Counted from the first letter of the stretch, positions 7,101 to 58,738 are shown. The stretch is DNA of 64,000 nucleotides from Anaerolineae bacterium (GCA_034432955.1 DAOUBB010000045.1:24302-88301), one strand, 5' to 3'. The notes: generated from the sequence alone by a model not told the origin. Made by a program: numbers and translations.

Positions 7101-8325
7101 CATCGTGACCGAAGGCTGGCTGGAACGCATGCTGGCCATCTTCCAGCGATATCCGCAGACCGGCATCGTTGGACCCATGTCCAACTATGTGTCCGGCCCT
7201 CAACTCGTGCCGAACGTCTCCTATAAAACGTTAACCGAGATGGAATCGTTTGCGGCGCAATGGGCAGCCGAGCATGCCGGGCAAAGCACGCAGGTCGCTC
7301 GCGTCGTGGGCTTCTGTCTGTTGGCGCGCCGGGAAGTGATCGAGCGCATCGGCGGGCTGGATGAGCAATTCGGCACAGGTAACTTTGAAGACGACGACTT
7401 CTGTATCCGCGCAGCTTTAGCTGGTTATGAGGTTCGGATTGCCCAAGACGTCTTCATCCACCATACTGGCAGTCAGACCTTCAGGAGCGCCGGGATTGAC
7501 TATCGCCAGAGCATGCAGCGCAACTGGGAGCTGTTCAAAGCTAAGTGGGGAATTCCGGCGGATACTCCTTTAGAGCAAGGGTATCGTGTGCCAAAGGAGT
7601 TGCCAGATCCGTCACGACTCTACGTGCCACTGCCCGATGTCAGCGCCGATCATCAGCTTGATACCAGTGGCCGCTGGTGGGAAGACGTGCGCCTGAGCGA
7701 ACTGCAGGCCACTCAAGAGGCTGTGCATCAGATCCTGGCCCCCGGCCAGGCCGCGCTGGAACGCGGCGACCTCGAAGCGGCTGCGCGCGAGTTCGCTCAG
7801 GTGACCCAACGCTACCCCGACCTGGCCGCCGGCCATACCGCCCTGGGCTCCACCCTCATGGCCCTGGGCCGACCACAGGAGGCGATCCCCGCGCTACGCC
7901 GCGCGGCGGAACTGGTGCCCCAGGCCGCGTCGCTGCAAAACCAGCTCGGCGTCGCGCTCTACCAGACAGGCGACCTGGTCGGAGCAGAGGCGGCCTTCCA
8001 GGCGGCCCGCCAGCTCGCCCCCAACGATGTGCCGGCCGCGCTCAACCTGATTGACCTGTATCGAACGATGGGAGATTATGCCCAAGCGACCGCCGTAGTC
8101 AAGGACGCGCTGCGCCAGCACCCCGATCACTCGGATGTGCTGGCCGCGTTTGGAACCCTGTGTGCCGAGCTGGGGGATGGCGAGGGGGTGGAGATGGCGC
8201 TCCGGCACATCCAGGCTCGCGATCCCCACCACCCGGCCATCGCGTCGCTGCAACAGGTGCTGTTAGCCTCAGACGAGAGCGGAGAAGCCGTAGAGACCCT
8301 CCCGGATACGGAAGAACCCGCTTGA
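4114..8325 (+). CDS. Multidomain glycosylation enzyme (class I SAM methyltransferase - GT2 - GT1-like - GT2 - TPR), 1403 aa
   Basis: Single long ORF. MTase motif LGCGTAPVLDWL. First GT2 VSVITPTRDRAHLL...IIVIDDGSTDNT. GT1-like EALACGRPLLTN. Second GT2 VSIVILTHNELSS...LLLVDNGSTDGT with DxD-containing FEDDDF. C-terminal TPR repeats. GC is visibly lower over 4114..~6800 than over the rest. Confidence 0.75.
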   Translation: MEALSWRRCMDEWETIKAHYQRVIQAAYAQPVYSHHTRAAFEACEHLLSDLDLRNAVELGCGTAPVLDWLARRKVQTLGITLGKEPLAHEFLQRDFHFTGLPDASFDLVVMRHALEHSPMPLLALLEVARISRRWALIIVPCDHPYWINYPNHYSVFSDAGWRRLFAEAGFQVVRFERGSFAEGAPSDIDIEWRYLLEKTASVVHDDKTPLLSEAVRRWTQTQARAPQVSVITPTRDRAHLLNRYLEALSRQTVVPGTFEIIVIDDGSTDNTPQVLQSWEHCFGPFLKVIRQDSRGPAAARNAGINASRGKLIIFLDDDVIARESLVEAHLKAHEEFPGTEVAFLGQLVWPDEYLQVEPFMEYQSAAGTIMFDYPKFHDRQLLPFRHFITANLSIKKDFLGDERFDEHFPYAMMEDTELGYRLSQRGLQLRYCRDAVGLHDCRRTYWTFRNRQEQYGFSLGYLESRWGDLAQELGAASLLQLWSESGALLPSIENAIAELEKVSVRGLDARLQVNGHSLQQLIFRLRALLYATALNLHIARGYKRWQENRRSGNGNGLRGRAFALPSGEAQSGAIEKTQSELTPLLVPEAEDLMRLRQLRVALIYDNTVRPDTTGEYCRRALERACMVKHILPQYLNAVRPEDFDLFFHVDDGLNYLLPPHLKPSIWWVIDTHLQYEWDVLKARQFDAVFAAQRDGTARLRSDGVPAIWLPLAADPQVHHPVELPEKFDWCFVGNLTEHGNPIGLERAALIELLKKTFPNYYVGRAYGDDMCRVYSASRVVFNRSVRNDVNMRVFEALACGRPLLTNAIDQNGLPDLLIENKNYVAYRTADDLIEKLRMLLSDDGYRVNLGRSGREAVLAKHTYFHRMMAALSWLLKEEIVKPKGSSFLAIKPTVSRAFAASLSPLVSIVILTHNELSSTKQCLASIEAHTSQPYELLLVDNGSTDGTLDFLRAYAATRDHVRVITNADNRGFSAGNNQGLSLAKGDYVLLLNNDTIVTEGWLERMLAIFQRYPQTGIVGPMSNYVSGPQLVPNVSYKTLTEMESFAAQWAAEHAGQSTQVARVVGFCLLARREVIERIGGLDEQFGTGNFEDDDFCIRAALAGYEVRIAQDVFIHHTGSQTFRSAGIDYRQSMQRNWELFKAKWGIPADTPLEQGYRVPKELPDPSRLYVPLPDVSADHQLDTSGRWWEDVRLSELQATQEAVHQILAPGQAALERGDLEAAAREFAQVTQRYPDLAAGHTALGSTLMALGRPQEAIPALRRAAELVPQAASLQNQLGVALYQTGDLVGAEAAFQAARQLAPNDVPAALNLIDLYRTMGDYAQATAVVKDALRQHPDHSDVLAAFGTLCAELGDGEGVEMALRHIQARDPHHPAIASLQQVLLASDESGEAVETLPDTEEPA

Positions 8326-8398
8326 GCGATCCGACCCTTTCGATGCGCGGGTGGTTTCCCTGTTGAGCGTTGCTACGCCACCCGTCGTGTTTTTTGGT

Positions 8399-8433
8399 CA
8401 GGTGCCCGGCACCTCAAAGGTGCCGGGCACCTG
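8399..8433. repeat. 35-bp perfect palindromic element CAGGTGCCCGGCACCTCAAAGGTGCCGGGCACCTG (copy 1)
   Basis: Exact hairpin with 16-bp arms and a 3-nt loop. Identical copies at 8614 and 20234. Lies between convergent genes. Confidence 0.85.
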
Positions 8434-8613
8434 ACATCCCGCAGCAGGTTGGGAACCCGTCGCGCGCCGGCCTGGGTGGTGCGCCGACGGCGGCGGCGCC
8501 TGGGCACCAAAAGATCATGCTCCCGCAGCAGGTGGAAGAGGCGATCTCGGCCGATGGAGAGCCCTTTTTTTCGCCATCTCCATGCCATACGCCTCCTGGT
8601 ATTGCAGCAACAC

Positions 8614-8648
8614 CAGGTGCCCGGCACCTCAAAGGTGCCGGGCACCTG
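8614..8648. repeat. 35-bp perfect palindromic element (copy 2)
   Basis: Identical to copy 1. Ends 3 nt before the PhyH-family gene stop (8651). Confidence 0.85.
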
Positions 8649-8650
8649 GT

Positions 8651-9662
8651 TTAGCCCCCGGGGAACTCGCCGCGCGCGGTGACGACGACCATCTCCCCAT
8701 CCATGCTCATCATGCGTCGAGGGGTGACAGACACGCTCTCCGACGGTGGAGGTTCCAGCGCGGCGCATGGAGTGCCAAAGGCCGGCCTGGCGAAGGGCAG
8801 GTGCGTCCGCCCGCGTGCCAGGATGTGCAAATAGTTGGCTGAGTCGCCCTCCCAGGGCTGCCCGTGGTTCCAGGGGACCCATGACCGGGCGTTGCAATAG
8901 TGGCAGACGAACGACCGGCGGAAGCGCGTTTTTGAACGATTGGGCGTGGAACGGTGAAGGATATGCCCCTGGAAGAAGACCACGTCGCCGGGCTCGGCGA
9001 TGATGGGAATCGGGGCAGGATACTTGCGCACGACGCGGGCGAGCGTGTTGATGCGGTCATCCTGGTGGCTTACGTTCTCGACCGGCTCCAGGTCCTCGAA
9101 GGCGCCATCGGCGTGGATCAGGCCGTGCGTGGGCTCTACCGGCGGGTAGATCGGCTCCCAGTTGGAGCCGGGGATCATACGCAGGCAGCCGGTCTCCTCA
9201 TCGGCCGTATCCAGCGCGATCCAGGCGCCGATGAGGGTGTCGGGATAGGTCGTGATGTAGTAGGCGTCCTGGTGCCAGCCCTGTCCGCCACGCCCCGGCG
9301 GGTTCAGGAACAACATCGTCTGCAAAGCCAGCACGTCAGGGCCGATCAGAGCCTCCAGCACGTCGAGGACGCGCGGGTGCAGCATGTATCGCTCGGCGAC
9401 CTCGTGGACTCGATGAAGCATATGAATGCGGGAGAAGCGGCCGAACAGCTCTTCCTCCATGGCGTGGGGGGGCGGGGGTGGCACACCTGGCAGCTCGATG
9501 CGCCCGTACAGGATGTCCATCGCGAATTGACGCAGCTCCTCTACCTCGGCCTGGGAGACCAGGCCGCGCACGAGGATGTAGCCATCGCGCTGGTAGGCGA
9601 TGTACTGATCCACGGTGACGCGATAGCGATCGGGGCGATCCTGAGCCACTGGGTGATACATG
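8651..9662 (-). CDS. Phytanoyl-CoA dioxygenase (PhyH) family Fe(II)/2OG oxygenase
   Basis: AGGAGG sits 9 nt upstream of the ATG at 9662 (MYHPVAQDRPDRYRV...). PhyH-like HxD...H signature region (WHQDAYY...GDVVFFQGHILHRS). The longer ORF start at 9781 lacks an RBS. Confidence 0.75.
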
Positions 9663-12583: not shown

Positions 12584-13791
12584 AGGTGGACGCTGCCGCG
12601 GTGCTGTTGTACAATCCTCACACTCAGGAATTGGAACATGCCGCCAGCCGTGGCTTTCAGGGCGGCGCCATCGAGCGTGTCCGCTTGCGCCTGGGCGAAG
12701 GTTACGCTGGCCGCGCGGCCCTGGAGCGCCGCCCGCTGGGCGTCGGCGATCTGGCCCAGGCCCGGGACTTCAAGCGGGCCCACTTGCTCCAGGAGGAAGG
12801 CTTTGTGGCCTACTATGCTGCGCCGCTGATTGCCCGCGGGCGCGTGCTGGGGGTGTTGGAGACTTTCCACCGCACCCCGCGAGATTTCGATGGGGAATGG
12901 CTGGAGTTCCTGGGGGCGCTGGCCGGACAGACGGCTCTCGCCTTGGAGAACGCCGGCCTCTACGCGGAGTTGCAGAAGTACACCGCGGAGCTGGAGCGCC
13001 GCGTAGCCGAGCGCACCGCCGAGCTCCAGGCCGCCAACGAACAGTTGCGCCAGGCCCACGAGGAGGTGAGCCGCGCCTTGGAGCGGGAACGGGAGCTGAA
13101 CGAGCTCAAGACCCGCTTCGTCTCCATGGTCTCCCACGAGTTTCGCACCCCTCTGACGGCCATTCTCTCCTCGGCCGAGCTGCTGGAACACTACAGCTTC
13201 CGCTGGCCTGAGGAGAAGAAGCTGACACACCTGCAACGCATCCGGGACACGGTGCAGCGCATGATGAAGCTGCTGGACGATGTGCTGGTGGTAAGCCGGT
13301 CTGAAGCCGGCCGGCTGGCGTTCAAGCCACAGCCGCTGGACCTGATCCCCTTCTGTCGCGACCTGGTGGAGGAGTTTCAACTGGAGATGGGGGCGCAGCA
13401 CCGCCTGATATTGGACCTGACTGGGCTGAAGGATCCGGAGAGCCTGCCGGCAGTGATGGACGAGCAACTCCTGCACCACATCCTGCGCAACCTGCTCTCC
13501 AACGCCATCAAGTACTCTCCGGCTGGCAGCGAGGTGCGGCTGGCGCTGTGGCGGCAAGGGGAGCGCGTGGTCTTCGAGGTGGAAGATCACGGCATTGGCA
13601 TCCCGGCGGCGGATCAGGCGCGATTGTTCGAGCCGTTCCACCGGGCTGGCAACGTGGGCTCGACGCCGGGCACCGGCCTCGGGCTACACATCGTCAAGCG
13701 GGCGGTGGACCTGCACGGCGGAGCGATCGCAGTGCAGAGTGAAGTGGATAAAGGGACTGTCGTGACGGTGGAACTGCCGATAGCCCCATAG
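12397..13791 (+). CDS. Histidine kinase C-terminal portion (GAF x2, HisKA, HATPase_c); continuation of the 10082 gene in the -1 frame
   Basis: GAF motifs. H-box SMVSHEFRTPLTAI. N-box LLSNAIKYS. G-boxes DHGIGI and GTGLGLHIVKRAV. This frame is open and homologous from about 12304 (SAVFPLISRGHTFGTLNLY...), upstream of the first ATG. Confidence 0.7.
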   Translation: MEAFQALAYQAGAALENARLYADALRCLQRVQALRNIDLAITGSLDPRVTLRILLDEVTQQLKVDAAAVLLYNPHTQELEHAASRGFQGGAIERVRLRLGEGYAGRAALERRPLGVGDLAQARDFKRAHLLQEEGFVAYYAAPLIARGRVLGVLETFHRTPRDFDGEWLEFLGALAGQTALALENAGLYAELQKYTAELERRVAERTAELQAANEQLRQAHEEVSRALERERELNELKTRFVSMVSHEFRTPLTAILSSAELLEHYSFRWPEEKKLTHLQRIRDTVQRMMKLLDDVLVVSRSEAGRLAFKPQPLDLIPFCRDLVEEFQLEMGAQHRLILDLTGLKDPESLPAVMDEQLLHHILRNLLSNAIKYSPAGSEVRLALWRQGERVVFEVEDHGIGIPAADQARLFEPFHRAGNVGSTPGTGLGLHIVKRAVDLHGGAIAVQSEVDKGTVVTVELPIAP

Positions 13792-13794
13792 AAG

Positions 13795-13998
13795 TGGCGC
13801 GGGCTTTAGCCCGCCATGGTGGCGTGGGCTTCAGCCCGCCCTGTGGCGCGGGCTTTAGCCCGCACCTTGCGGCCTGAAGGCCGCGCCACACTTGTGGGGT
13901 GGGCTTCAGCCCGCATGGGCGGCCTGAAGGCCGCGCCACACTCGTGGCGTGGGCTTTAGCCCGCCGTGGAGTAGGCTTGAGCCCGCCTTGCGCCACAA
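13795..13998. repeat. REP array (about 8-9 tandem copies of the 21-bp hairpin repeat GTGGCGYGGGCTTYAGCCCGC, in both orientations)
   Basis: Units separated by 1-5 nt. The reverse-orientation units read GCGGCCTGAAGGCCGCGCCACA. Each unit contains an internal hairpin (GGGCT-TTA-AGCCC). Confidence 0.85.
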
Positions 13999-14010: not shown

Positions 14011-14688
14011 ATGGCTCAAGAAAAACACTACTACCGACGCGATCTACCGCACTACCATCCGGCTGACTCCGTCTTCTTCATCACCTTCCGCCTGGCCAAC
14101 TCCCTGCCCGCTCACATTTGGCAGGAACTTCTTGCTGAACGTGAACGGGAGCGCCGGGAATTGCAAGGGAAGCACTCCGGTGCAGCATATCGGCAGGCGC
14201 TTTACGAGCTAGAAAAGAAACATTTCGGTCGTTTCGACACCTGGCTGGATCGTTGCACAGAGGGCCCACGATGGCTGGCGGAGGAGCGCATCGCCCAGAT
14301 CGTCGCCCATGAGATCCATGCGTTAGATGGTCATCGCTATCATTTGTTGGCATACTGTGTCATGTCGAACCACGTGCATCTCTTGATTGACACCACAGGA
14401 TATGGGCATTCTTCCCCGCCTGGCGCAACGAGCACTGCGTCCTATCCTTTGGCCGAGACCTTGCGACTTCTGAAGGGAAGGACGGCGCGCTATTGCAACC
14501 AGGCCTTGGGGCGCAGTGGCATCTTCTGGCATGATGAAAGTTATGACCATGTTGTGCGCGATGAGGTGGAACTGAGACGCATTGTGTGGTATATTGCGAA
14601 CAACCCAGTGAAGGCTGGTCTGGTGAAAGATTGGAAGGAGTGGAAGTTCACTTTTGTTTCAACGGATATAATGGATTACATGTTCTGA
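14011..14688 (+). CDS. REP-associated tyrosine transposase (RAYT; IS200/IS605-like Y1 HuH transposase)
   Basis: HuH motif SNHVHLLID. C-terminal WHDESYDHVVRDE matches the RAYT W..(Y)(D/E)H.IR(D/N) tyrosine motif. Flanked on both sides by REP arrays. Confidence 0.8.
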   Translation: MAQEKHYYRRDLPHYHPADSVFFITFRLANSLPAHIWQELLAERERERRELQGKHSGAAYRQALYELEKKHFGRFDTWLDRCTEGPRWLAEERIAQIVAHEIHALDGHRYHLLAYCVMSNHVHLLIDTTGYGHSSPPGATSTASYPLAETLRLLKGRTARYCNQALGRSGIFWHDESYDHVVRDEVELRRIVWYIANNPVKAGLVKDWKEWKFTFVSTDIMDYMF

Positions 14689-14906
14689 AGGCCGCGCCGT
14701 GGTGTGGGCTTTAGCCCGCCATGGTGGCGGCGTGGGGTGGGCTTCAGCCCGCATGGGCGGCCTGAAGGCCGCGCCACACTCGTGGGGTGGGCTTCAGCCC
14801 GCCGTGGTGGCGTGGGCTTTAGCCCGCATGGGCGGCCTGAAGGCCGCGCCACATTCGGCCTGAAGGCCGCGCCACAGCCATGTGTGGCCTGAAGGCTGCG
14901 CCACAT
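14687..14906. repeat. REP array (about 9 copies, mixed orientation) downstream of RAYT
   Basis: Same 21-bp unit family as 13795..13998. Starts overlapping the RAYT stop codon. Confidence 0.85.
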
Positions 14907-14922
14907 TCGATCAGGAGGAGAT

Positions 14923-17241: not shown

Positions 17242-20130
17242 TCATGTCAGGGTCTTGAAGCGGCGGCCCGAGGCGGCCAGCTCATCCAGCATGGCCTTGG
17301 TCTCCGCTTCATTCGCGCCGGCCAGTCGTTCGACCTTGCAGCCGGCCGCGCGCAGCCGCTGCTCATCCTCCACCGAAACCCCCGCCACACCCCCTACGAT
17401 GGTCACGTACTGCGCCTGCATCGCATCTTCGATCCGGAAGCCGCACGCCGGCCGGAACCGCTGGATGTAGTTGGTCGCGTTGGCCCAATCCTGCCGCGCC
17501 CAGAAATCAGGGCTACGCCACCAGAACAGCAGATAGTGCTCAATCGTCTTGCGCGCGGTGTTCGCGTATTGAGCCTGTACCTCCTGGATGCGACGCATGA
17601 GCGCCTCTTTCCACTTCTGCCCGTTCAGCCACATGTCGCCCGGACAGGCGGTGGTCTGGTTGGGCATCTCCTTGTGCCCGCGCACCCAGTCCAACGGCAC
17701 ATTGAGCTGTTGCATGAGCCAGGCGATCAGGTGCCCGCCTCGCTCGATCTGCTCCGGCGTGGGGGTGGCGTTGGTAAAATCGCCAGCGAAGGCCACGCCG
17801 ACGCTGTACGCGTTCTGCCCGCGCGTGTGCGCCGAAACCGTCTCCACCCAGTTGGTCTGCTCGATCGTCCCGTCCGGGTTCACGAAGAAATGATAGCCAA
17901 TGCCGGGCCAGCCGTTGGTGTTCACGTGTACCTCGGCCACGCGGCGAGCCCCGATGGTGGGCGGAACCGCCGTGTGGTGGACGACGATCGCCTTAATGGC
18001 CGAGCGGAACCGCGTGCCGTAGACGTTGTTGGGGTCACTGCTCTTGGGCAGCTCATCCACGATCACATTGAGGGCTGGCCTGGGGATGGGGCCTAGCGGC
18101 ACATCGTCTAACTGGCGACGCAGGCTGGTGTTCTCACGCTGCAATTGACGGATTTGGGCTTCCGCGGCGGCTAGCTGTTGGCGGGCCGCATCCAACTCCG
18201 ATCGGGCCGTCGTCAGTTGAACCTGCAGCTCGGCCACACGTGCCCGTAGCTGGGTGATCTCCTCGGCCGGGGTTGCCTGTAACAAATCCCGAACCCTTTG
18301 CAAGAGCGAGTCCTTCCAGCGAGCGCCTTGTAGCCACTGCGTCCCCGGCGAGAAGGTGGAGGTCAACTCTGACATCCCAACGATCGCGGTCTCGGGCAGG
18401 TTGAGTTCCTGAAGCAGCCACGCGCTCAGGTGCGCCGCCGCATCCAGTTGGGGAGCGGAGGGGGGCTGCTCCATGAAATTGCCCGCCACGTAGATGTTGA
18501 CCCCTTCCACCGACCACGTCTGTTGCCCGTTCACCACCTCGGTCAGCGGCTGTGTCTGCAGGATGCGGCCATCGCCTGTGATCAGGTATTGGCCGGCGAA
18601 TCCTGGTAACCCGCGTTCCCGATGCGCCGTCGCCAGCCGATCCACGCTCACGGTGGCCGGCACTGCCGTGTGATTGAACACGAGATAACGGATCCGCTCC
18701 AGCGGCCGCTGGACAAAGCCGGCCGGGTTACGGCTCAACCGGCTGATCACGTCCTCGATCTGAGGGCGCTCCACGCGTCCGGTCGCCCGGTTGGGGGCGA
18801 CGGTCACCTCGATGGGAACGGTAAGCGGGGGGTTGCCCTGATCGCGGAACCAGGTAATCCCCTCCTCGACCAGATCCCACTCCAGGACGTAGTTGCCCGG
18901 CTGCGCTGGCGCTACCACCCGTGCGTCCACCTCGATCGTTTCGCCCGGCGCTACGTCCGATGGCAGCTCGCTGCGGATATCGTGCTCGGGCATCAGGAGC
19001 ACTGGCTGTCCCATCTGATCGAACCAGTGGAACCCCAGGTGCACAGGGTTCGCCCCATCGCGCTTCCAGAGCTGGCTCCCGTCGTTTCGCAGCCGAAAGT
19101 GCACCGCGTAGGTGGTGCCGGTGTACATCCGGGCTGGCGTGCTGTGTTCCAGAAACGCCGCGCGATACGGCTCGGCCACCGGCTGCTCTCGCCAGCGATA
19201 GTCGAAATCCAGGGCCATCAGAAAGTCCTCGATCACCCCGCGCTTCCCCTCAATCACCCACCGGTCCCGCGGCGGCCATCGGTACAACGCCAGCAGCCGG
19301 ATCTGCTGATGCCCCGGCTGCTGATTCCACCAGTTGATCTCGGCATAGGCGTTGCGCACCCATCCGCTGTTCACGTCCGCCCAGGGATCATTCTGATCCG
19401 TCTCCGTGATGTACACTGGCAGATGCCGCATGGAGGCCGGGATCGCTTCCATCAAGTCGCGGTAGGCGAAGAAATGGTAGTATCGGTGCTGGAAAGGGGG
19501 GGCCATGCGCGCCGTGCTGAAGATCAGGTTCGGATCGGCGCCGTGCGTGTAGGTGTGCAGGGCGATCGCGTCGCAGCCGTCAGGGCCCAACAGGCGCAGG
19601 ATGTCCTGGAAATAGACCACCCAATCACCGATGCTGTTGCCGGGATACGTGGTCTCATTGTTCCATAGCCCGACGGCTGCCACGCACACCTGGTCGTTTT
19701 CGTGGCCTGGCACCTGTTTGATCGCCTCCCGGCACAGACGGTAGCAGCGGGCGTACAACTGGGGTGTGATCACCTCACCGGTTCGCCCGCCGGGCCGTTC
19801 AACGGGCAGGTTCGGTTCATTGCCGATGATCCAGATGTGCGCGCCGCGCGAGGCCGCGACGAAGTTGGCGCAGCGCTGCGCGAAGTCCGCATATCGGCTG
19901 GAATGGGGGATCGTGCCGTTCGGCTCATAGCCATGGTTCAGGCGCACGATCACGCCCAGGTTCTGGTCAGACCACGGTCGGTAATCCCGGCCGGTACGGT
20001 TGTTGGGATCCGCTCCGAGCTCTTCGGTGAACACGATCCACCCGGGCTTGCCCTTGGCAAGCATGTATTTTTCGCCGCCCTCTTCGTGGATCCCGAAAAT
20101 GTACGGAGAATCACGCAGTGGTCGAGGCAT
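17242..20130 (-). CDS. Large cell-wall hydrolase: GH5-like (clan GH-A, GNEPN motif) domain plus two N-acetylmuramoyl-L-alanine amidase (Amidase_2/PGRP) domains plus coiled coil
   Basis: IWIIGNEPNLP glycosidase motif. Two amidase_2 blocks (VFNHTAVPATV...GVNIYVAGNF and VVHHTAVPPTI...SVGVAFAGDF). Heptad-rich segment ELQVQLTTARSELDAARQQLAAAEAQIRQLQREN. No N-terminal signal peptide. Confidence 0.7.
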   Translation of the reverse strand: MPRPLRDSPYIFGIHEEGGEKYMLAKGKPGWIVFTEELGADPNNRTGRDYRPWSDQNLGVIVRLNHGYEPNGTIPHSSRYADFAQRCANFVAASRGAHIWIIGNEPNLPVERPGGRTGEVITPQLYARCYRLCREAIKQVPGHENDQVCVAAVGLWNNETTYPGNSIGDWVVYFQDILRLLGPDGCDAIALHTYTHGADPNLIFSTARMAPPFQHRYYHFFAYRDLMEAIPASMRHLPVYITETDQNDPWADVNSGWVRNAYAEINWWNQQPGHQQIRLLALYRWPPRDRWVIEGKRGVIEDFLMALDFDYRWREQPVAEPYRAAFLEHSTPARMYTGTTYAVHFRLRNDGSQLWKRDGANPVHLGFHWFDQMGQPVLLMPEHDIRSELPSDVAPGETIEVDARVVAPAQPGNYVLEWDLVEEGITWFRDQGNPPLTVPIEVTVAPNRATGRVERPQIEDVISRLSRNPAGFVQRPLERIRYLVFNHTAVPATVSVDRLATAHRERGLPGFAGQYLITGDGRILQTQPLTEVVNGQQTWSVEGVNIYVAGNFMEQPPSAPQLDAAAHLSAWLLQELNLPETAIVGMSELTSTFSPGTQWLQGARWKDSLLQRVRDLLQATPAEEITQLRARVAELQVQLTTARSELDAARQQLAAAEAQIRQLQRENTSLRRQLDDVPLGPIPRPALNVIVDELPKSSDPNNVYGTRFRSAIKAIVVHHTAVPPTIGARRVAEVHVNTNGWPGIGYHFFVNPDGTIEQTNWVETVSAHTRGQNAYSVGVAFAGDFTNATPTPEQIERGGHLIAWLMQQLNVPLDWVRGHKEMPNQTTACPGDMWLNGQKWKEALMRRIQEVQAQYANTARKTIEHYLLFWWRSPDFWARQDWANATNYIQRFRPACGFRIEDAMQAQYVTIVGGVAGVSVEDEQRLRAAGCKVERLAGANEAETKAMLDELAASGRRFKTLT

Positions 20131-20233
20131 TTCATTCCTCCATAATCAGAGTGCAACGTCGAAGCTGATCGCCTTCCGAGATTATATATTAACTTTTCGT
20201 GGCTGTCTACGGCCGGCAAGCGGGCATTATACT

Positions 20234-20268
20234 CAGGTGCCCGGCACCTCAAAGGTGCCGGGCACCTG
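20234..20268. repeat. 35-bp perfect palindromic element (copy 3)
   Basis: Identical to 8399 and 8614. Located in the divergent intergenic region between the hydrolase and the TPR-PD40 gene. Confidence 0.85.
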
Positions 20269-20378
20269 ATATCGCAGGCTACAAAGCTTGCGGGAGGGTT
20301 TCCAGTGCGTGCGATCATTTGGACACGCTTCCGGATTGCGAGTATAATCCCACGGATTGTGGGAGGAGACGATCACCC

Positions 20379-22133
20379 ATGGGGACTCTGCGCTGGAAAC
20401 TGGCGTTTGCGGCTGCGATGCTGATCGGCGTCTCGGCGCTGGTCCTGAGCGTCGCCCTGGGCGTCTACCAGGGCCAGCAACAACGGATCGAATCTCTGGA
20501 ACGACAAATTACGGCCTACCAGCGTGAGCTGGCGACCGTCCATTATCAGCAGGGGCTTGCGTATCTGCAAGCCGGACGGCTCGACGAGGCCCATGCCGAG
20601 CTGCAAACGGCCCTCGATCTGCAGCCGGATTATCCCGAAGCTGCTGCAGCGCTGCAGAGGCTGCAACAGCTACAGCAGTCGTCCACCCCTGCGCCAACAG
20701 GGACAATGACCCCCTCGCCTTCCCTCGCTGAGTCCGTCAGTGCGGGCCAAGGCGACGCGCTGCAGTTGCTCTTCGAGGGGGCAGCTCGAGCCTATCAGCT
20801 CGGCAATTGGGCGGAGGTTATCCGATTGCTCGAATCGCTGCGCCTCCAGGACATCGCGTACCAACGCCCGGAGGTGGAGCGCATGTTGTTCAGGGCGTAT
20901 CGCCAGCAGGGGGCAGCGCTGGTCGAGCAGGATCGCTTTGAAGAGGCGTTGCGCATGTTCGACCGCGCGCTGGTGCTGAGGCCGGATGCGCAGGACGTCA
21001 AGAGCGAGCGCGAGATGGCCGCCCTGTACAGTGACGGCTTGAGCTACTGGCGCGCCGACTGGCAACAGGCCATCGCCCGCTTTCAGCAGATCTACGACCG
21101 AAACCCAAATTATCGGGATGTCAGACAGCGCCTGGCCGATGCCCATGCCGGCTACGCGGAGCGGCTGGGCGAGCGCGGGAACTGGTGCGCGGCCGCGGAG
21201 CGATATGAGGAGGCGCTGAAGATCGTGGACTCCGAAGCCGTGCGTGCAAGCCGTGATCTTGCCGTGGAGCGATGCAAGGCCGGCGTAGGGGTGATCGCCG
21301 AGATAGAAGGGGTTGGCAGCAGCATGAAAGGGCGCGTGGCTGTGGCCGCGCGCGACCCGTATGTCCGACGCTATCGCATCTTCACGATCGCGCCAGGGCA
21401 GGCTCCCCAGGTGTTAATCGAAGAGGCCGCTCAGCCGACCTGGTCGCCGGACGGGAAAGCGGTGGCCTTTCGCTCGTTGAAGGCTGACGAGCTGGGCCTT
21501 GAGCTTCTCGTCTTCGCCACGGGCCAACGCCGTCGTGTGACCCGCTTCGCGGAGGATGGTTTCCCCTCCTGGTCGCCCGACGGACAGCAGATCGTGTTCG
21601 CCTCAAACCGCGAAGGGGATCGCCGCTGGCGCATTTACCGGGTGTGGGCATGGGCGGAAGGCACCCTTCCGGAGACCAGCCTGGGGTTCGGGCGATCGCC
21701 GGCGTGGTCCCCGGATGGCCAGCGCATCGCCTATCAGGGGTGTGATGAGCGGGGCAACCGCTGTGGTTTATGGACCATGGCGCCCGATGGCAGCAACCGC
21801 CAGCCGCTGACCGATGACCCCAGCGACACCGCGCCCGCTTGGTCTCCGGACGGCCGATGGCTGGCCTTCATGTCCTATGCGCGGACAGGTCGTTGGGATA
21901 TCTACGTTCTCCAGATGGCCACGGGAAAGGTGACGCCGTTGGTGATGGGAGCGGGCAACGCTGGCCTGCCGGCGTGGTCGCCAGACGGCCAGCAGATCGC
22001 CTTCCTCTCTGACCGATCAGGCAACTGGGCGATCTACGTGGTTCCGGCTGCGGGTGGCTCGATCCGAAAGCTGGCCGACCTGCCAGGCACCACCGATGAC
22101 TGGCTCCTGGAACGGTTGAGCTGGGGACGGTGA
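20379..22133 (+). CDS. TPR-repeat plus PD40/TolB-like beta-propeller protein with N-terminal TM anchor
   Basis: GGGAGGAG sits 10 nt before the ATG at 20379. [25 protein letters not shown] repeats. Repeated WSPDG(K/Q/R)xxAF PD40 blades. Confidence 0.7.
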
Positions 22134-27169: not shown

Positions 27170-27248
27170 TCGGCCCCGAGCTTCCTTGGGGCATCAGCCC
27201 CATAACAAGATGGGTGACAGAAGGCGCTGCCTTCTGCCACCCAAAGGA

Positions 27249-27268
27249 CTAAGACTTTTCAGACACCC
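27249..27268 (-). repeat. 20-bp dispersed 3'-UTR repeat AGGGTGTCTGAAAAGTCTTA (copy A, downstream of tkt)
   Basis: Exact match to 58532..58551 in the same orientation relative to the upstream gene. Followed by a hairpin (GCAGAAGGC-agc-GCCTTCTGC). Confidence 0.7.
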
Positions 27269-27290
27269 TCTCAGAGCGAAGGAAGCTGCC

Positions 27291-30851: not shown

Positions 30852-30990
30852 GGCACGCTGCCTTCATGCCTTCACAAGCTCAGGATGTACAAGGGTAGAT
30901 GAGGGCAATGCCCTCGTCTATCCTGAAGGACGATCACAAAGGCCACCGTAGGATGGTCTCGCAGCGCGAGCTGAAGCTCATCCCACCCCT

Positions 30991-56707: not shown

Positions 56708-58531
56708 GTGATGATGTTTGGTGCACACGCTTTACAGGCGTTGGCGCGTCAGCCTGAACGCGCACGCAATCGCCGACAGGCCGCGCGGCGCCTTGTCACC
56801 TATCTGTGGCCTTATCGCTGGACGTGGCTCCTGGTCCTCATCGCCACCGGGGGCGCCTCTCTCACCGCGCTGGCCGGTCCATATCTCATCGGCCGGGCCA
56901 TTGACCAGGCCATCGCCCAGGGCGACCGGCGCAGGCTGGCCATGACGATGCTCGCCTTCGCCGGCGCCATCGTTGGCGGATATCTTTTTAATGCCTTGAG
57001 CAACTACAGCATGGCGGTTATCGGGCAGCGCACTTTGCAATCGCTGCGCAACGACATCTTCAGCCAGGTGCAGCGGCTGTCGTTGCGCTTCTTCGACACG
57101 CACGAGCCTGGCGACCTGATGAGCCGCCTGGTCAACGATACCGACACCATCAACCAGTTCCTGAGCAACGGATTGAACCGCATCTTGATTGACACGCTAT
57201 CGCTGTTCGGGATCATCCTCGTCATGTTGCGATTGCAGATGAGCCTGGCGCTCGTCTCCTTCACGGTGATCCCGTTCATGGTCGGGATGACGGTCTACTT
57301 CGCCCGACGGGCACGGGTGGCTTACCGGCGCACGCGTGAGCGGATCGGCGCGGTGTCGGCGGAGTTGGAGGAGAACATCGCTGGCGTGCGGGAGGTGCAG
57401 GCCTTCGCCCGTGAGCGGGAGAACCAGCAGCGCTTTCTGGAGCTGAACGCGGCCAATCGCGATGCCGCCGTCAGCGCGCAGGCGATCACCGCGGCGTTCA
57501 TGCCCACGGTGGACATCCTGAGCGCCGTGGCGATGGCGATCGTCGCCGGGTACGGCGGCTATTTGGCCGTGCGGGGGCAGGCCTCCGTGGGGTTGATCGC
57601 CGCCTTTCTGGGGTATGTGCAGCGCTTTTTCATGCCGATCCGGGCCATCTCACAGCTCTACACGTCAGCGCAATCGGCCCTGGCCGGCGCCGAGCGCATC
57701 TTCGACCTGTTGGACGAGCAGCCCGAGATCCAGGACGCGCCCGATGCCTTCGAGATGCCGCCCATCCAGGGGCACGTGATCTTCGATCACGTCCGCTTCG
57801 GGTATAAGCCGGGCGAGGAGGTGCTGCACGACATCACGCTGGAGGCGCTGCCGGGGCAGACGATCGCCCTGGTAGGGCCGACGGGCGCGGGCAAGTCTAG
57901 CATCGTGAACTTGCTGATGCGGTTCTACGACGTGTGGGACGGGGCGGTGCGGATTGACGGCATAGACGTGCGCCAGGTGACTCAGTCCAGCCTGCGGCGG
58001 CAGATGGGGATCGTCCTCCAGGACACGTTCCTCTTCTCTGGGACGGTCGCGGACAACATCCGCTACGGCCGGCTGGACGCCACCGACGAGGAGGTCGAGG
58101 CGGCCGCCCGCCTGGTCAACGCCCATGAGTTCATCTCCCGCCTGCCGAACGGCTACCAGACGCGCGTGTTGGAGCGGGGGAATAACTTCTCGCAGGGGCA
58201 ACGGCAGCTCATCGCCTTCGCCCGGGCCGTGCTGGCCGACCCGCGCATCCTCATCCTGGATGAGGCGACGTCGAGTGTGGACACCCGGACGGAGGTGCTG
58301 ATTCAAGAGGCGTTGGGCCGATTGCTAAAGGGGCGGACCAGCTTCGTCATCGCGCATCGGCTGAGCACCATCCGCAACGCCGATCAGGTGCTGATGATCA
58401 TGGATGGGCGCATCGTCGAGCGCGGCACGCATGAGGAGCTGCTGGCCCGTCGTGGCGCCTACTATGTGCTGTATAGCCAGCAGTTTGCGGGCGATGGACG
58501 GGCGCGGGAGGAACCGATCGAGGTCGCTTAG
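56708..58531 (+). CDS. ABC exporter, fused permease-ATPase, subunit 2
   Basis: Walker A GPTGAGKSS. Signature FSQGQRQLIAFARAV. Walker B ILILDEATS. Confidence 0.85.
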   Translation: MMMFGAHALQALARQPERARNRRQAARRLVTYLWPYRWTWLLVLIATGGASLTALAGPYLIGRAIDQAIAQGDRRRLAMTMLAFAGAIVGGYLFNALSNYSMAVIGQRTLQSLRNDIFSQVQRLSLRFFDTHEPGDLMSRLVNDTDTINQFLSNGLNRILIDTLSLFGIILVMLRLQMSLALVSFTVIPFMVGMTVYFARRARVAYRRTRERIGAVSAELEENIAGVREVQAFARERENQQRFLELNAANRDAAVSAQAITAAFMPTVDILSAVAMAIVAGYGGYLAVRGQASVGLIAAFLGYVQRFFMPIRAISQLYTSAQSALAGAERIFDLLDEQPEIQDAPDAFEMPPIQGHVIFDHVRFGYKPGEEVLHDITLEALPGQTIALVGPTGAGKSSIVNLLMRFYDVWDGAVRIDGIDVRQVTQSSLRRQMGIVLQDTFLFSGTVADNIRYGRLDATDEEVEAAARLVNAHEFISRLPNGYQTRVLERGNNFSQGQRQLIAFARAVLADPRILILDEATSSVDTRTEVLIQEALGRLLKGRTSFVIAHRLSTIRNADQVLMIMDGRIVERGTHEELLARRGAYYVLYSQQFAGDGRAREEPIEVA

Positions 58532-58551
58532 AGGGTGTCTGAAAAGTCTTA
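58532..58551 (+). repeat. 20-bp dispersed 3'-UTR repeat AGGGTGTCTGAAAAGTCTTA (copy B, immediately after the ABC exporter stop)
   Basis: Exact match to 27249..27268. The flanking TCGCTTAG / TCGCTCTGAG are also similar. Followed by a nested hairpin (TTGCGCC...GGCGGGATGGATCCCGCC...GGCGCAA) and a degenerate REP at about 58608..58629. Confidence 0.7.
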
Positions 58552-58738
58552 ACAGGCCCCCTTTGCGCCAAGGCGGGATGGATCCCGCCCCTACTTCGTG
58601 GGCGCAAGCGGGCTGAAGCCCACACCACACGGGAAAAAGCGCCCGGCTCAGCGCACTGCTGAGTGCCTCGGAACCAGATTCCCATTCCACTCAAACGAAT
58701 TTCGCGACATCCTCTTAGCAAGGGGCAGGCAGCGGGCA

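Follow-up and report, generated by a model that had tools for sequence, protein, structure and literature searches.

Two copies of a 35-nt sequence, CAGGTGCCCGGCACCTCAAAGGTGCCGGGCACCTG, stand on either side of a short segment between two convergent genes of an Anaerolineae bacterium. What kind of element is this sequence, and does the enclosed segment belong to it? The first-pass annotation had seen here a novel family of perfectly palindromic repeats, and had likened the two copies with the DNA between them, a 250-bp unit, to a MITE or a paired bidirectional terminator. In the window, by which we mean the whole 64-kb stretch of DNA analysed, the 35-mer has three exact matches, all on the plus strand (8399-8433, 8614-8648 and 20234-20268), whereas its expected count over 100 shuffles is 0; the reported threefold occurrence at 100% identity is thus confirmed. 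Perfect symmetry holds for the arms, which are 16 nt long and fully complementary, and not for the centre. The 35-mer differs from its own reverse strand at three positions, all of them within the loop, and the central CAA is asymmetric, so that a copy can be assigned a direction. The three copies are oriented alike, and they are spaced by 215 bp and 11.6 kb. The features discussed below, named as we interpret them, are as follows.

8399-8433, plus strand: REP doublet (compact REPIN), copy 1, made of units AGGTGCCCGGCACCT and AGGTGCCGGGCACCT with the loop CAA; its stem reaches 8397-8435 and its DNA hairpin has a folding energy of -25.7 kcal/mol.

8614-8648, plus strand: REP doublet, copy 2, an exact match oriented as copy 1, with a stem extended by a C..G pair.

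20234-20268, plus strand: REP doublet, copy 3, an exact match oriented as copies 1 and 2.

8434-8613, minus strand: relic of an IS3-family transposase (OrfB) gene (NCBIfam NF033516, E = 9.6e-6).

Each copy is composed of two 15-nt units, AGGTGCC[C/G]GGCACCT, placed in inverted order around a 3-nt loop. Moreover, the arms are palindromic in their own right: both have an odd base in the middle of their 15 nt (AGGTGCC-C-GGCACCT in the first, AGGTGCC-G-GGCACCT in the second) and show a 7-1-7 symmetry. Neighbouring bases lengthen the stem to 17-18 bp, with a T..A pair in copies 1 and 3 and a C..G pair in copy 2. When folded as single-stranded DNA, the copies reach -23.7 to -25.7 kcal/mol (z about -10 relative to shuffles), and, as a consequence of the nested palindrome, the hairpins of the two strands are nearly identical. 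Searches of the 64 kb with an arm allowing up to 2 mismatches and with an 11-nt core revealed no other convincing copy, be it whole, half or degenerate. The six half-units of the window all belong to doublets, so that in this genome segment the unit is always the doublet. In Rfam, no family was matched at the gathering threshold, the best matches being generic hairpins (miRNA precursors, Pxr) with 21-31 bits against 40-168, and a literature search with the repeat sequence retrieved only unrelated primers and constructs and not the motif.

Copies 1 and 2 do bracket 180 bp between convergent genes, as had been noted. Copy 1 starts 74 nt past the stop (8325) of a plus-strand methyltransferase/glycosyltransferase/TPR gene of 1394-1403 aa, copy 2 ends 2 nt short of the stop codon (8651-8653) of a minus-strand PhyH-family dioxygenase gene, and the interval between the two copies is exactly 180 bp (8434-8613). 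The placement of copy 3 in a divergent promoter region also stands: at 20234-20268 it lies in the ~250-bp gap between an Amidase_2 gene (minus strand, start 20130) and a TPR/PD40 gene (plus strand, start about 20380). There it is located between two outward-pointing promoter-like sites, with a -35 box at 20209 on the minus strand for the amidase and another at 20320 on the plus strand for the TPR/PD40 gene.

To collect relatives, we scanned GTDB representatives, one genome per species, with the pattern half-N(1-12)-half, which gave 54 stretches. Nearly all of them come from about ten Anaerolineae-type MAGs, including AnMBR.bin316 (18 copies), CSSed162cmA_203 (13), SRP239243_co2_359 (6) and MFD05942.bin.2.46 (5). 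With 53 inverted doublets in about ten related MAGs, the repeat is a dispersed family and not a local duplication, in agreement with its initial description as a family. The relatives have loops of 3-6 nt that are largely genome-specific: CAA in 3 of 3 copies of the window, TCTG or its complement CAGA in 11 of 13 copies of CSSed162cmA_203, and 6-nt A/T-rich sequences in binchicken_co8_372. No other contig among the GTDB representatives or the JGI metagenome contigs contains the exact CAA-loop 33-mer (zero hits). Loops that are homogeneous within genomes and divergent between them suggest that the whole doublet is the multiplying unit. In addition, the odd bases at the arm centres complement each other (C..G or G..C) in 53 of 53 inverted doublets from the Anaerolineae-type loci, and the long hairpin is thereby preserved. 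The C-first and G-first doublets represent distinct variants rather than the two strands of one element.

Most doublets (41/53) lie outside open frames that extend 60 codons to either side of them. Clear in-frame intragenic cases number at least two. One (L001, 1598-1630) resides in nuoL, where it reads VPGTLEVPGT within the Proton_antipo_M domain and is accompanied by a degenerate second copy near 2560. The other (L044, 2718-2751) resides in aroC; the chorismate synthase encoded there is otherwise full-length, and the doublet, read as GAGHLLRCPAP, falls in a variable region of it. The arms of the doublet have no stop codon in any frame, and the two insertions add ~11 residues to otherwise intact essential genes. 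At three non-Anaerolineae MAG loci, from a Myxococcota MAG and an unclassified "bacterium", the 15-mer was found in an arrangement that differs from the inverted doublets, namely as direct repeats with 11-nt spacers and a 26-nt period (L039, 5818-5858; L041, 1211-1251; L046, 3099-3139).

One of the collected loci, L038 from MAG H63_643, contains a gene for a Y1/HUH transposase (RAYT) with doublets at both ends, the upstream one 16 nt ahead of the first ATG and the downstream one 4 nt past the stop codon. The gene is frameshifted in that assembly and its protein was reconstructed. In a database search it matches over 7,900 proteins (E <= 1e-10), which typically are 193 aa long. The clade protein belongs to Pfam family Y1_Tnp (PF01797), has the JGI name "REP element-mobilizing transposase RayT", and scores 76 bits against NCBIfam REP_Tyr_transpos, just below the 80-bit cut-off. 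It is homologous to E. coli TnpA_REP (PDB 4ER8), the only relative with a solved structure. In the alignment of 22 sequences the HUH motif PNHYH (H60, H62) and the motif RYIHANP (Y120...N124 P125) are invariant.

The repeat motif, GTGCCNGGCAC/GTGACCGGCAC, is present beside the gene in 12 of the 13 close RAYT members, L038 counted; the homologues other than L038 were retrieved via the protein alone and with no use of the repeat. A cognate transposase, which the first-pass annotation had proposed to look for, is thus found in relatives, with doublets at its flanks. The remaining close members show the following arrangements.

P0014, P0118, P0107, L065, L071 and L106: compact doublets on both sides of the gene, e.g. 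AGGTGCCTGGCACTT-tga-AAGTGCCAGGCACCT.

P0054, P0059, P0005, P0001 and L066: REPs of the same motif as long-spacer inverted pairs (about 55-67 nt, the classical REPIN spacing).

P0069: a diverged motif, the one exception.

The P0059 gene is followed by about 15 tandem long-spacer copies. At L060 (2086-3520), about 15 long-spacer REPINs are arranged head to tail with a 99-nt period directly downstream of a RAYT gene; a 433-aa gene call overlapping this array is probably spurious.

Further from L038, the sequence of the repeat changes and its architecture is retained. Only 4 of 29 metagenomic RAYT loci at >=55% identity (80 loci) contain GGTGCCNGGCAC, the rest having other sequences in a like architecture, which indicates that the motif is specific to a subclade. 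Distant members (35-60% identity) are accompanied by hairpins of the same geometry and different sequence, such as AACCTTGCGAAGGTT-tga-AACCTTCGCAAGGTT, AGACCTCCGAGGTCT-agc-AGACCTCGGAGGTCT and AGAAACCAGGTTTCT-taa-AGAAACCTGGTTTCT. Both flanks were available for 75 wider-clade loci. Hairpins with stems of 12 bp or more accompany the RAYT gene on both sides in 32 of these loci and on at least one side in 48; as a background, the 64-kb window has 5 such hairpins, 3 of which are the 35-mer copies. In 28 flanking doublets of the 15-3-15 type, 13 of 15 stem pairs covary, and only A1, T15, A19 and T33 are invariant. Stem pairing in these doublets amounts to 99.5%, a value that is partly built in, because the set was picked with a hairpin finder. 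Quasi-palindromy of the arms, a trait that was not selected for, gives 89% of paired cells compared to 35-51% in slid controls.

RAYT genes of this clade and their REPINs were repeatedly observed inside restriction-modification/defence clusters (L056, L057, L062/L063, L145, L146). Their neighbours there include Eco57I/MmeI-like type IIG enzymes, hsdS and hsdR (with the RAYT between them), GmrSD, SLFN/AlbA_2 and a PLD-SNF2 helicase. In the 64-kb window itself, a tblastn search with the L038 RAYT detected no member of the 193-aa clade.

Taken together, these results make it highly probable that the 35-mer is a compact REPIN, consisting of two inverted 15-nt REP units 3 nt apart, whose family co-occurs and co-varies with the 193-aa HUH/Y1 RAYT clade in Anaerolineae-type Chloroflexota. 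In Proteobacteria, REP dimers and REPIN-RAYT systems are characterized by inverted hairpin doublets dispersed mostly in extragenic DNA, by a single Y1 transposase gene with copies at either flank and by co-divergence of repeat and enzyme (PMC3116915, PMC5581495, PMC6006769). There is also precedent for in-frame or intragenic REP insertions (PMC6006769, PMC3733652) and for REP dimers 1-5 bp apart (PMC3733652). The repeat was first put forward as novel, a view that its being a known REP/BIME of this species was to refute, and it turns out to be a REP/BIME in kind; no repeat is known to have been catalogued for this uncultured organism. Neither a MITE, nor a terminator pair, nor a new kind of element is supported.

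We considered whether copies 1 and 2 could instead be a pair of Rho-independent bidirectional terminators serving the convergent genes and reused elsewhere. Their positions 74 nt and 2 nt beyond the two convergent stop codons would suit such a role, as would their GC-rich, very stable hairpins, and a passage in PMC3733652 credits E. coli REPs with stabilising upstream mRNA. However, a terminator scan of 8200-8800 and 20050-20450 found no site combining a hairpin with a T-tract on either strand, no copy is followed by a T-tract, and copy 3 is upstream of both divergent -35 boxes. Given that a U-tract is missing at every copy and that copy 3 lies between divergent promoter-like sites, the terminator explanation fails. 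Furthermore, conservation of 33 identical bases between unlinked loci and between species, placement at either flank of transposase genes and in-frame positions within nuoL or aroC are all foreign to ordinary terminators. We therefore regard this explanation as very improbable. The proposed "paired bidirectional terminator" does not survive the U-tract test, whereas the accompanying remark that the element is "not just a terminator" is borne out by copy 3. As an incidental property, and not as their defining trait, the hairpins may stabilise or end both convergent transcripts.

An equally slim chance remains for the 35-mer being a double-stranded site, in which two adjacent 15-bp palindromic operators bind a dimeric or tetrameric regulator or a nucleoid protein and are conserved by the host. 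The 7-1-7 palindromic arm indeed has the classic shape of a dimer-binding site, the nested symmetry is conserved across the family, and copy 3 is positioned between two promoters. Against this, the arms are separated by anything from 3 to 6 nt, or by about 55-67 nt in certain genomes, and such variation would rotate one operator site with respect to the other. Complementarity between the arm centres is invariable, a feature that matters for intrastrand pairing and not for independent duplex sites. In addition, the sequence of the repeat tracks the lineage of the neighbouring RAYT rather than any regulon, and some copies are within coding sequences.

The compact REPIN identified here leaves the 180-bp segment between copies 1 and 2 to be explained. 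Its minus strand reads ...KKGLSIGRDRLFHLLREHDLLVPRRRRRRRTTQAGARRVPNLLRDV, and ~54 codons of an IS3-family transposase remain (...GLSIGRDRLFHLLREHDLLVPRRRRRRRTTQAG..VPNLLRDV), corresponding to positions 153-206 of the 369 in the NF033516 model. In line with this assignment, 7 of 9 weak tblastn plasmid hits of the segment are annotated IS3 transposases matched in the same region. Pfam searches with a 174-aa spurious ORF and a 61-aa fragment returned nothing meaningful. The IS3 homology stops at both doublets: on the left, the 73 nt contain no transposase-like frame, and on the right the PhyH stop follows at once. We found no DDE region and no IS ends in the spacer, and with ~54 internal codons only it is a relic and not an IS3 element. 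We do not count the relic towards the repeat element. No second copy of the 180-bp interior exists in the window or in the 54 related loci, and the 250-bp unit is accordingly two repeat copies around a gene relic, not a repeated element. The motif that had been described as duplicated within the segment is real (TCCCGCAGCAGGT, at 8437 and 8521). Its significance is another matter, as the CCCGCAGCAGGT duplicate is the reverse complement of the N-L-L-R-D and H-L-L-R-E codons of the relic on the minus strand; encoding the two Leu-Leu-Arg runs of the relic, the duplication is incidental.

Less probable still than the terminator and operator explanations is a MITE, with either the 250-bp unit or the 35-mer alone (its arms serving as minimal terminal inverted repeats) moved by a DDE transposase, for example of the IS3 family. 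In its favour are the small, inverted and multicopy nature of the repeat and the position of an IS3 transposase fragment exactly between two copies; yet the interior is unique in the window and the 54 related loci and is an internal piece of orfB (positions 153-206 of 369) rather than an IS end, the bases next to the copies complement each other (TC..GA, CC..GG) rather than forming direct repeats, which leaves no target-site duplication, and the transposase associated with the repeat in relatives is of the Y1 type, no DDE transposase being present among the gene calls inspected around the RAYT loci. The initial MITE interpretation of the 250-bp unit is therefore abandoned, its interior being a unique IS3 relic and no second unit or target-site duplication having been seen. 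With its inverted arms and with copies spaced by 215 bp and 11.6 kb, the 35-mer does not fit a CRISPR or tandem-repeat interpretation.

Since RAYT genes sit between doublets and L038 has, after its upstream doublet, a GACA..CGCAGCAG stretch in common with the 180-bp segment, we also considered the segment as a decayed cognate RAYT. This was rejected: the only tblastn match of the L038 RAYT in the window is at 14344-14652, and the stretch in common codes for the NLLRD residues of the IS3 relic. In the public annotation of an identical MAG contig, a 71-aa gene without a Pfam hit is called at 8373-8588 on the minus strand, spanning the relic and copy 1. This is most likely a false call, representing an IS3 pseudogene fragment.

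As for the history of the locus, the two doublets at the convergent 3' ends enclose the remains of a decayed IS3-family IS. Either the doublets colonised a dead IS or the IS inserted among doublets, and both scenarios would fit; the deletions that removed the rest of the IS would have ended at the doublets. IS3-family elements of the IS1397/ISKpn1 type insert into REP/BIME palindromes, and the present locus resembles them in having an IS3-family transposase remnant directly between REP palindromes. It differs in that only 54 internal codons are left, without visible IS ends or a split palindrome that would point to a targeted insertion. Conceivably, two directly oriented doublets may also carry the intervening DNA, with the IS3 fragment as their cargo.

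The window contains a second REP family, organized as a classical REPtron. GTGG-footed REP arrays at 13744-13994 and 14695-14918, in which GTGGCGCGGGCTTTAGCCCGC alternates with GCGGCCTGAAGGCCGC, surround a 225-aa RAYT gene at 14011-14688 (Pfam Y1_Tnp; 68 bits against NCBIfam REP_Tyr_transpos), and stray copies occur at 30987, 58602 and 61903. This RAYT, the only one in the window, is 26% identical to the L038-type clade. The window is the same as the NCBI MAG contig CAYRQQ010000026.1 (GCA_964426405.1) over the 20.7 kb compared, except for the length of the GTGG-footed REP array, which differs between the two. The 35-mer had been called unrelated in sequence to this REP family, and this is correct. 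In kind the two families are alike, both being REP doublets associated with a tyrosine transposase: they have in common that hairpin repeats stand at the flanks of a Y1 transposase gene, and they coexist in one genome. The GTGG family differs from the 35-mer in its canonical GTGG foot, shorter GCGGGC/GCCCGC stems, 4-nt loops and organization in arrays. A further pair of repeats in the window, the 25-nt TAAGACTTTTCAGACACCCTCTCAG, is located at 27250-27274 and 58527-58551, in inverted orientation, 96% complementary and 31 kb apart. Each of its copies adjoins another hairpin or REP (27211-27243; 58602-58629), and the pair may represent a third small repeat family.

By homology with E. coli TnpA_REP and IS200/IS605 TnpA, whose mode of action is established, the most likely way in which the 35-mer spreads is the following. 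In single-stranded DNA, such as that exposed at the replication fork, the doublet would form a hairpin of 15-18 bp, and this single-stranded hairpin would be the substrate of a single-copy RAYT encoded elsewhere in the genome. The enzyme would bind the hairpin and cut and rejoin the strand beside it, and the doublet, including its loop, could thereby be copied or moved to new, mostly extragenic sites. RAYT-catalysed mobility of this sort would keep the repeat homogeneous within a genome and let it drift between genomes together with its RAYT.

With the repeat recognized as a REP doublet linked to a tyrosine transposase, one candidate for a "novel element" drops out. What emerges in its place is a large and mostly uncultured RAYT clade consistently flanked by very compact, GTAG-less hairpins of one fixed geometry, which offers a test case outside Proteobacteria for substrate recognition by RAYTs. 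There are also consequences for annotation: inserts of 11-12 residues with the sequence VPGT.. or GAGHL.. in Anaerolineae proteins can be REP-encoded, and contigs of these MAGs often break at such repeats.

How does this family compare with known REPs? Canonical REPs are marked by a conserved 5' tetranucleotide, GT[AG]G (or CGTC), at the hairpin foot (PMC6006769, PMC3733652). The foot of the present doublet is (T/C)CAGGTG, with neither the 5' GT[AG]G nor the CGTC tag. Atypical REPs lacking the tag have been reported for RAYT subclass 2.6 and class 3 (PMC6006769). In E. coli TnpA_REP, GTAG is contacted by W94, Q95, E100, H101 and R104 (PMC6006769). When P0014 is aligned to 4ER8, these positions are occupied by F, E, A, I and D, respectively. 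By its sequence motifs, the clade enzyme may presumably be Quentin subclass 2.1 / Bertels Group 1-like, and such RAYTs have, to our knowledge, been reported without associated REPs. With no GT[AG]G guide, conservation confined to the A/T bases at the arm ends and the GTAG-contacting residues replaced, the 193-aa Chloroflexota RAYT clade and its 15-3-15 "palindrome of palindromes" could constitute an undescribed REPIN-RAYT lineage with a different mode of hairpin recognition, although for the time being we consider this rather unlikely.

The resemblance to E. coli BIMEs and P. fluorescens REPINs (PMC3116915; PMC6006769) extends to inverted hairpin-forming doublets that are dispersed, mostly extragenic and homogeneous per genome, to doublets on both sides of a single HUH/Y1 gene (REPtron), to co-divergence and to occasional in-frame copies. 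In contrast to those systems, the 35-mer family has no GT[AG]G foot, its spacer is 3-6 nt, the whole is a near-perfect palindrome of 33-36 nt with arms that are themselves palindromic, and its copies number tens per genome, not hundreds. Among Chloroflexi, only the GTAG-23 family of Thermomicrobium roseum is described in PMC3733652. The families of that study are tagged with GTAG or CGTC, whereas the 35-mer family has neither tag. Nevertheless, Opitutus terrae GTAG-17/-19 and Wolbachia CGTC-4 (PMC3733652) are similar to the 35-mer in forming abutted head-head/tail-tail dimers (1-5 bp) that make up a single stem-loop, and, like the doublets in nuoL and aroC, they are found in frame in genes, where they encode up to 20-30 residues.
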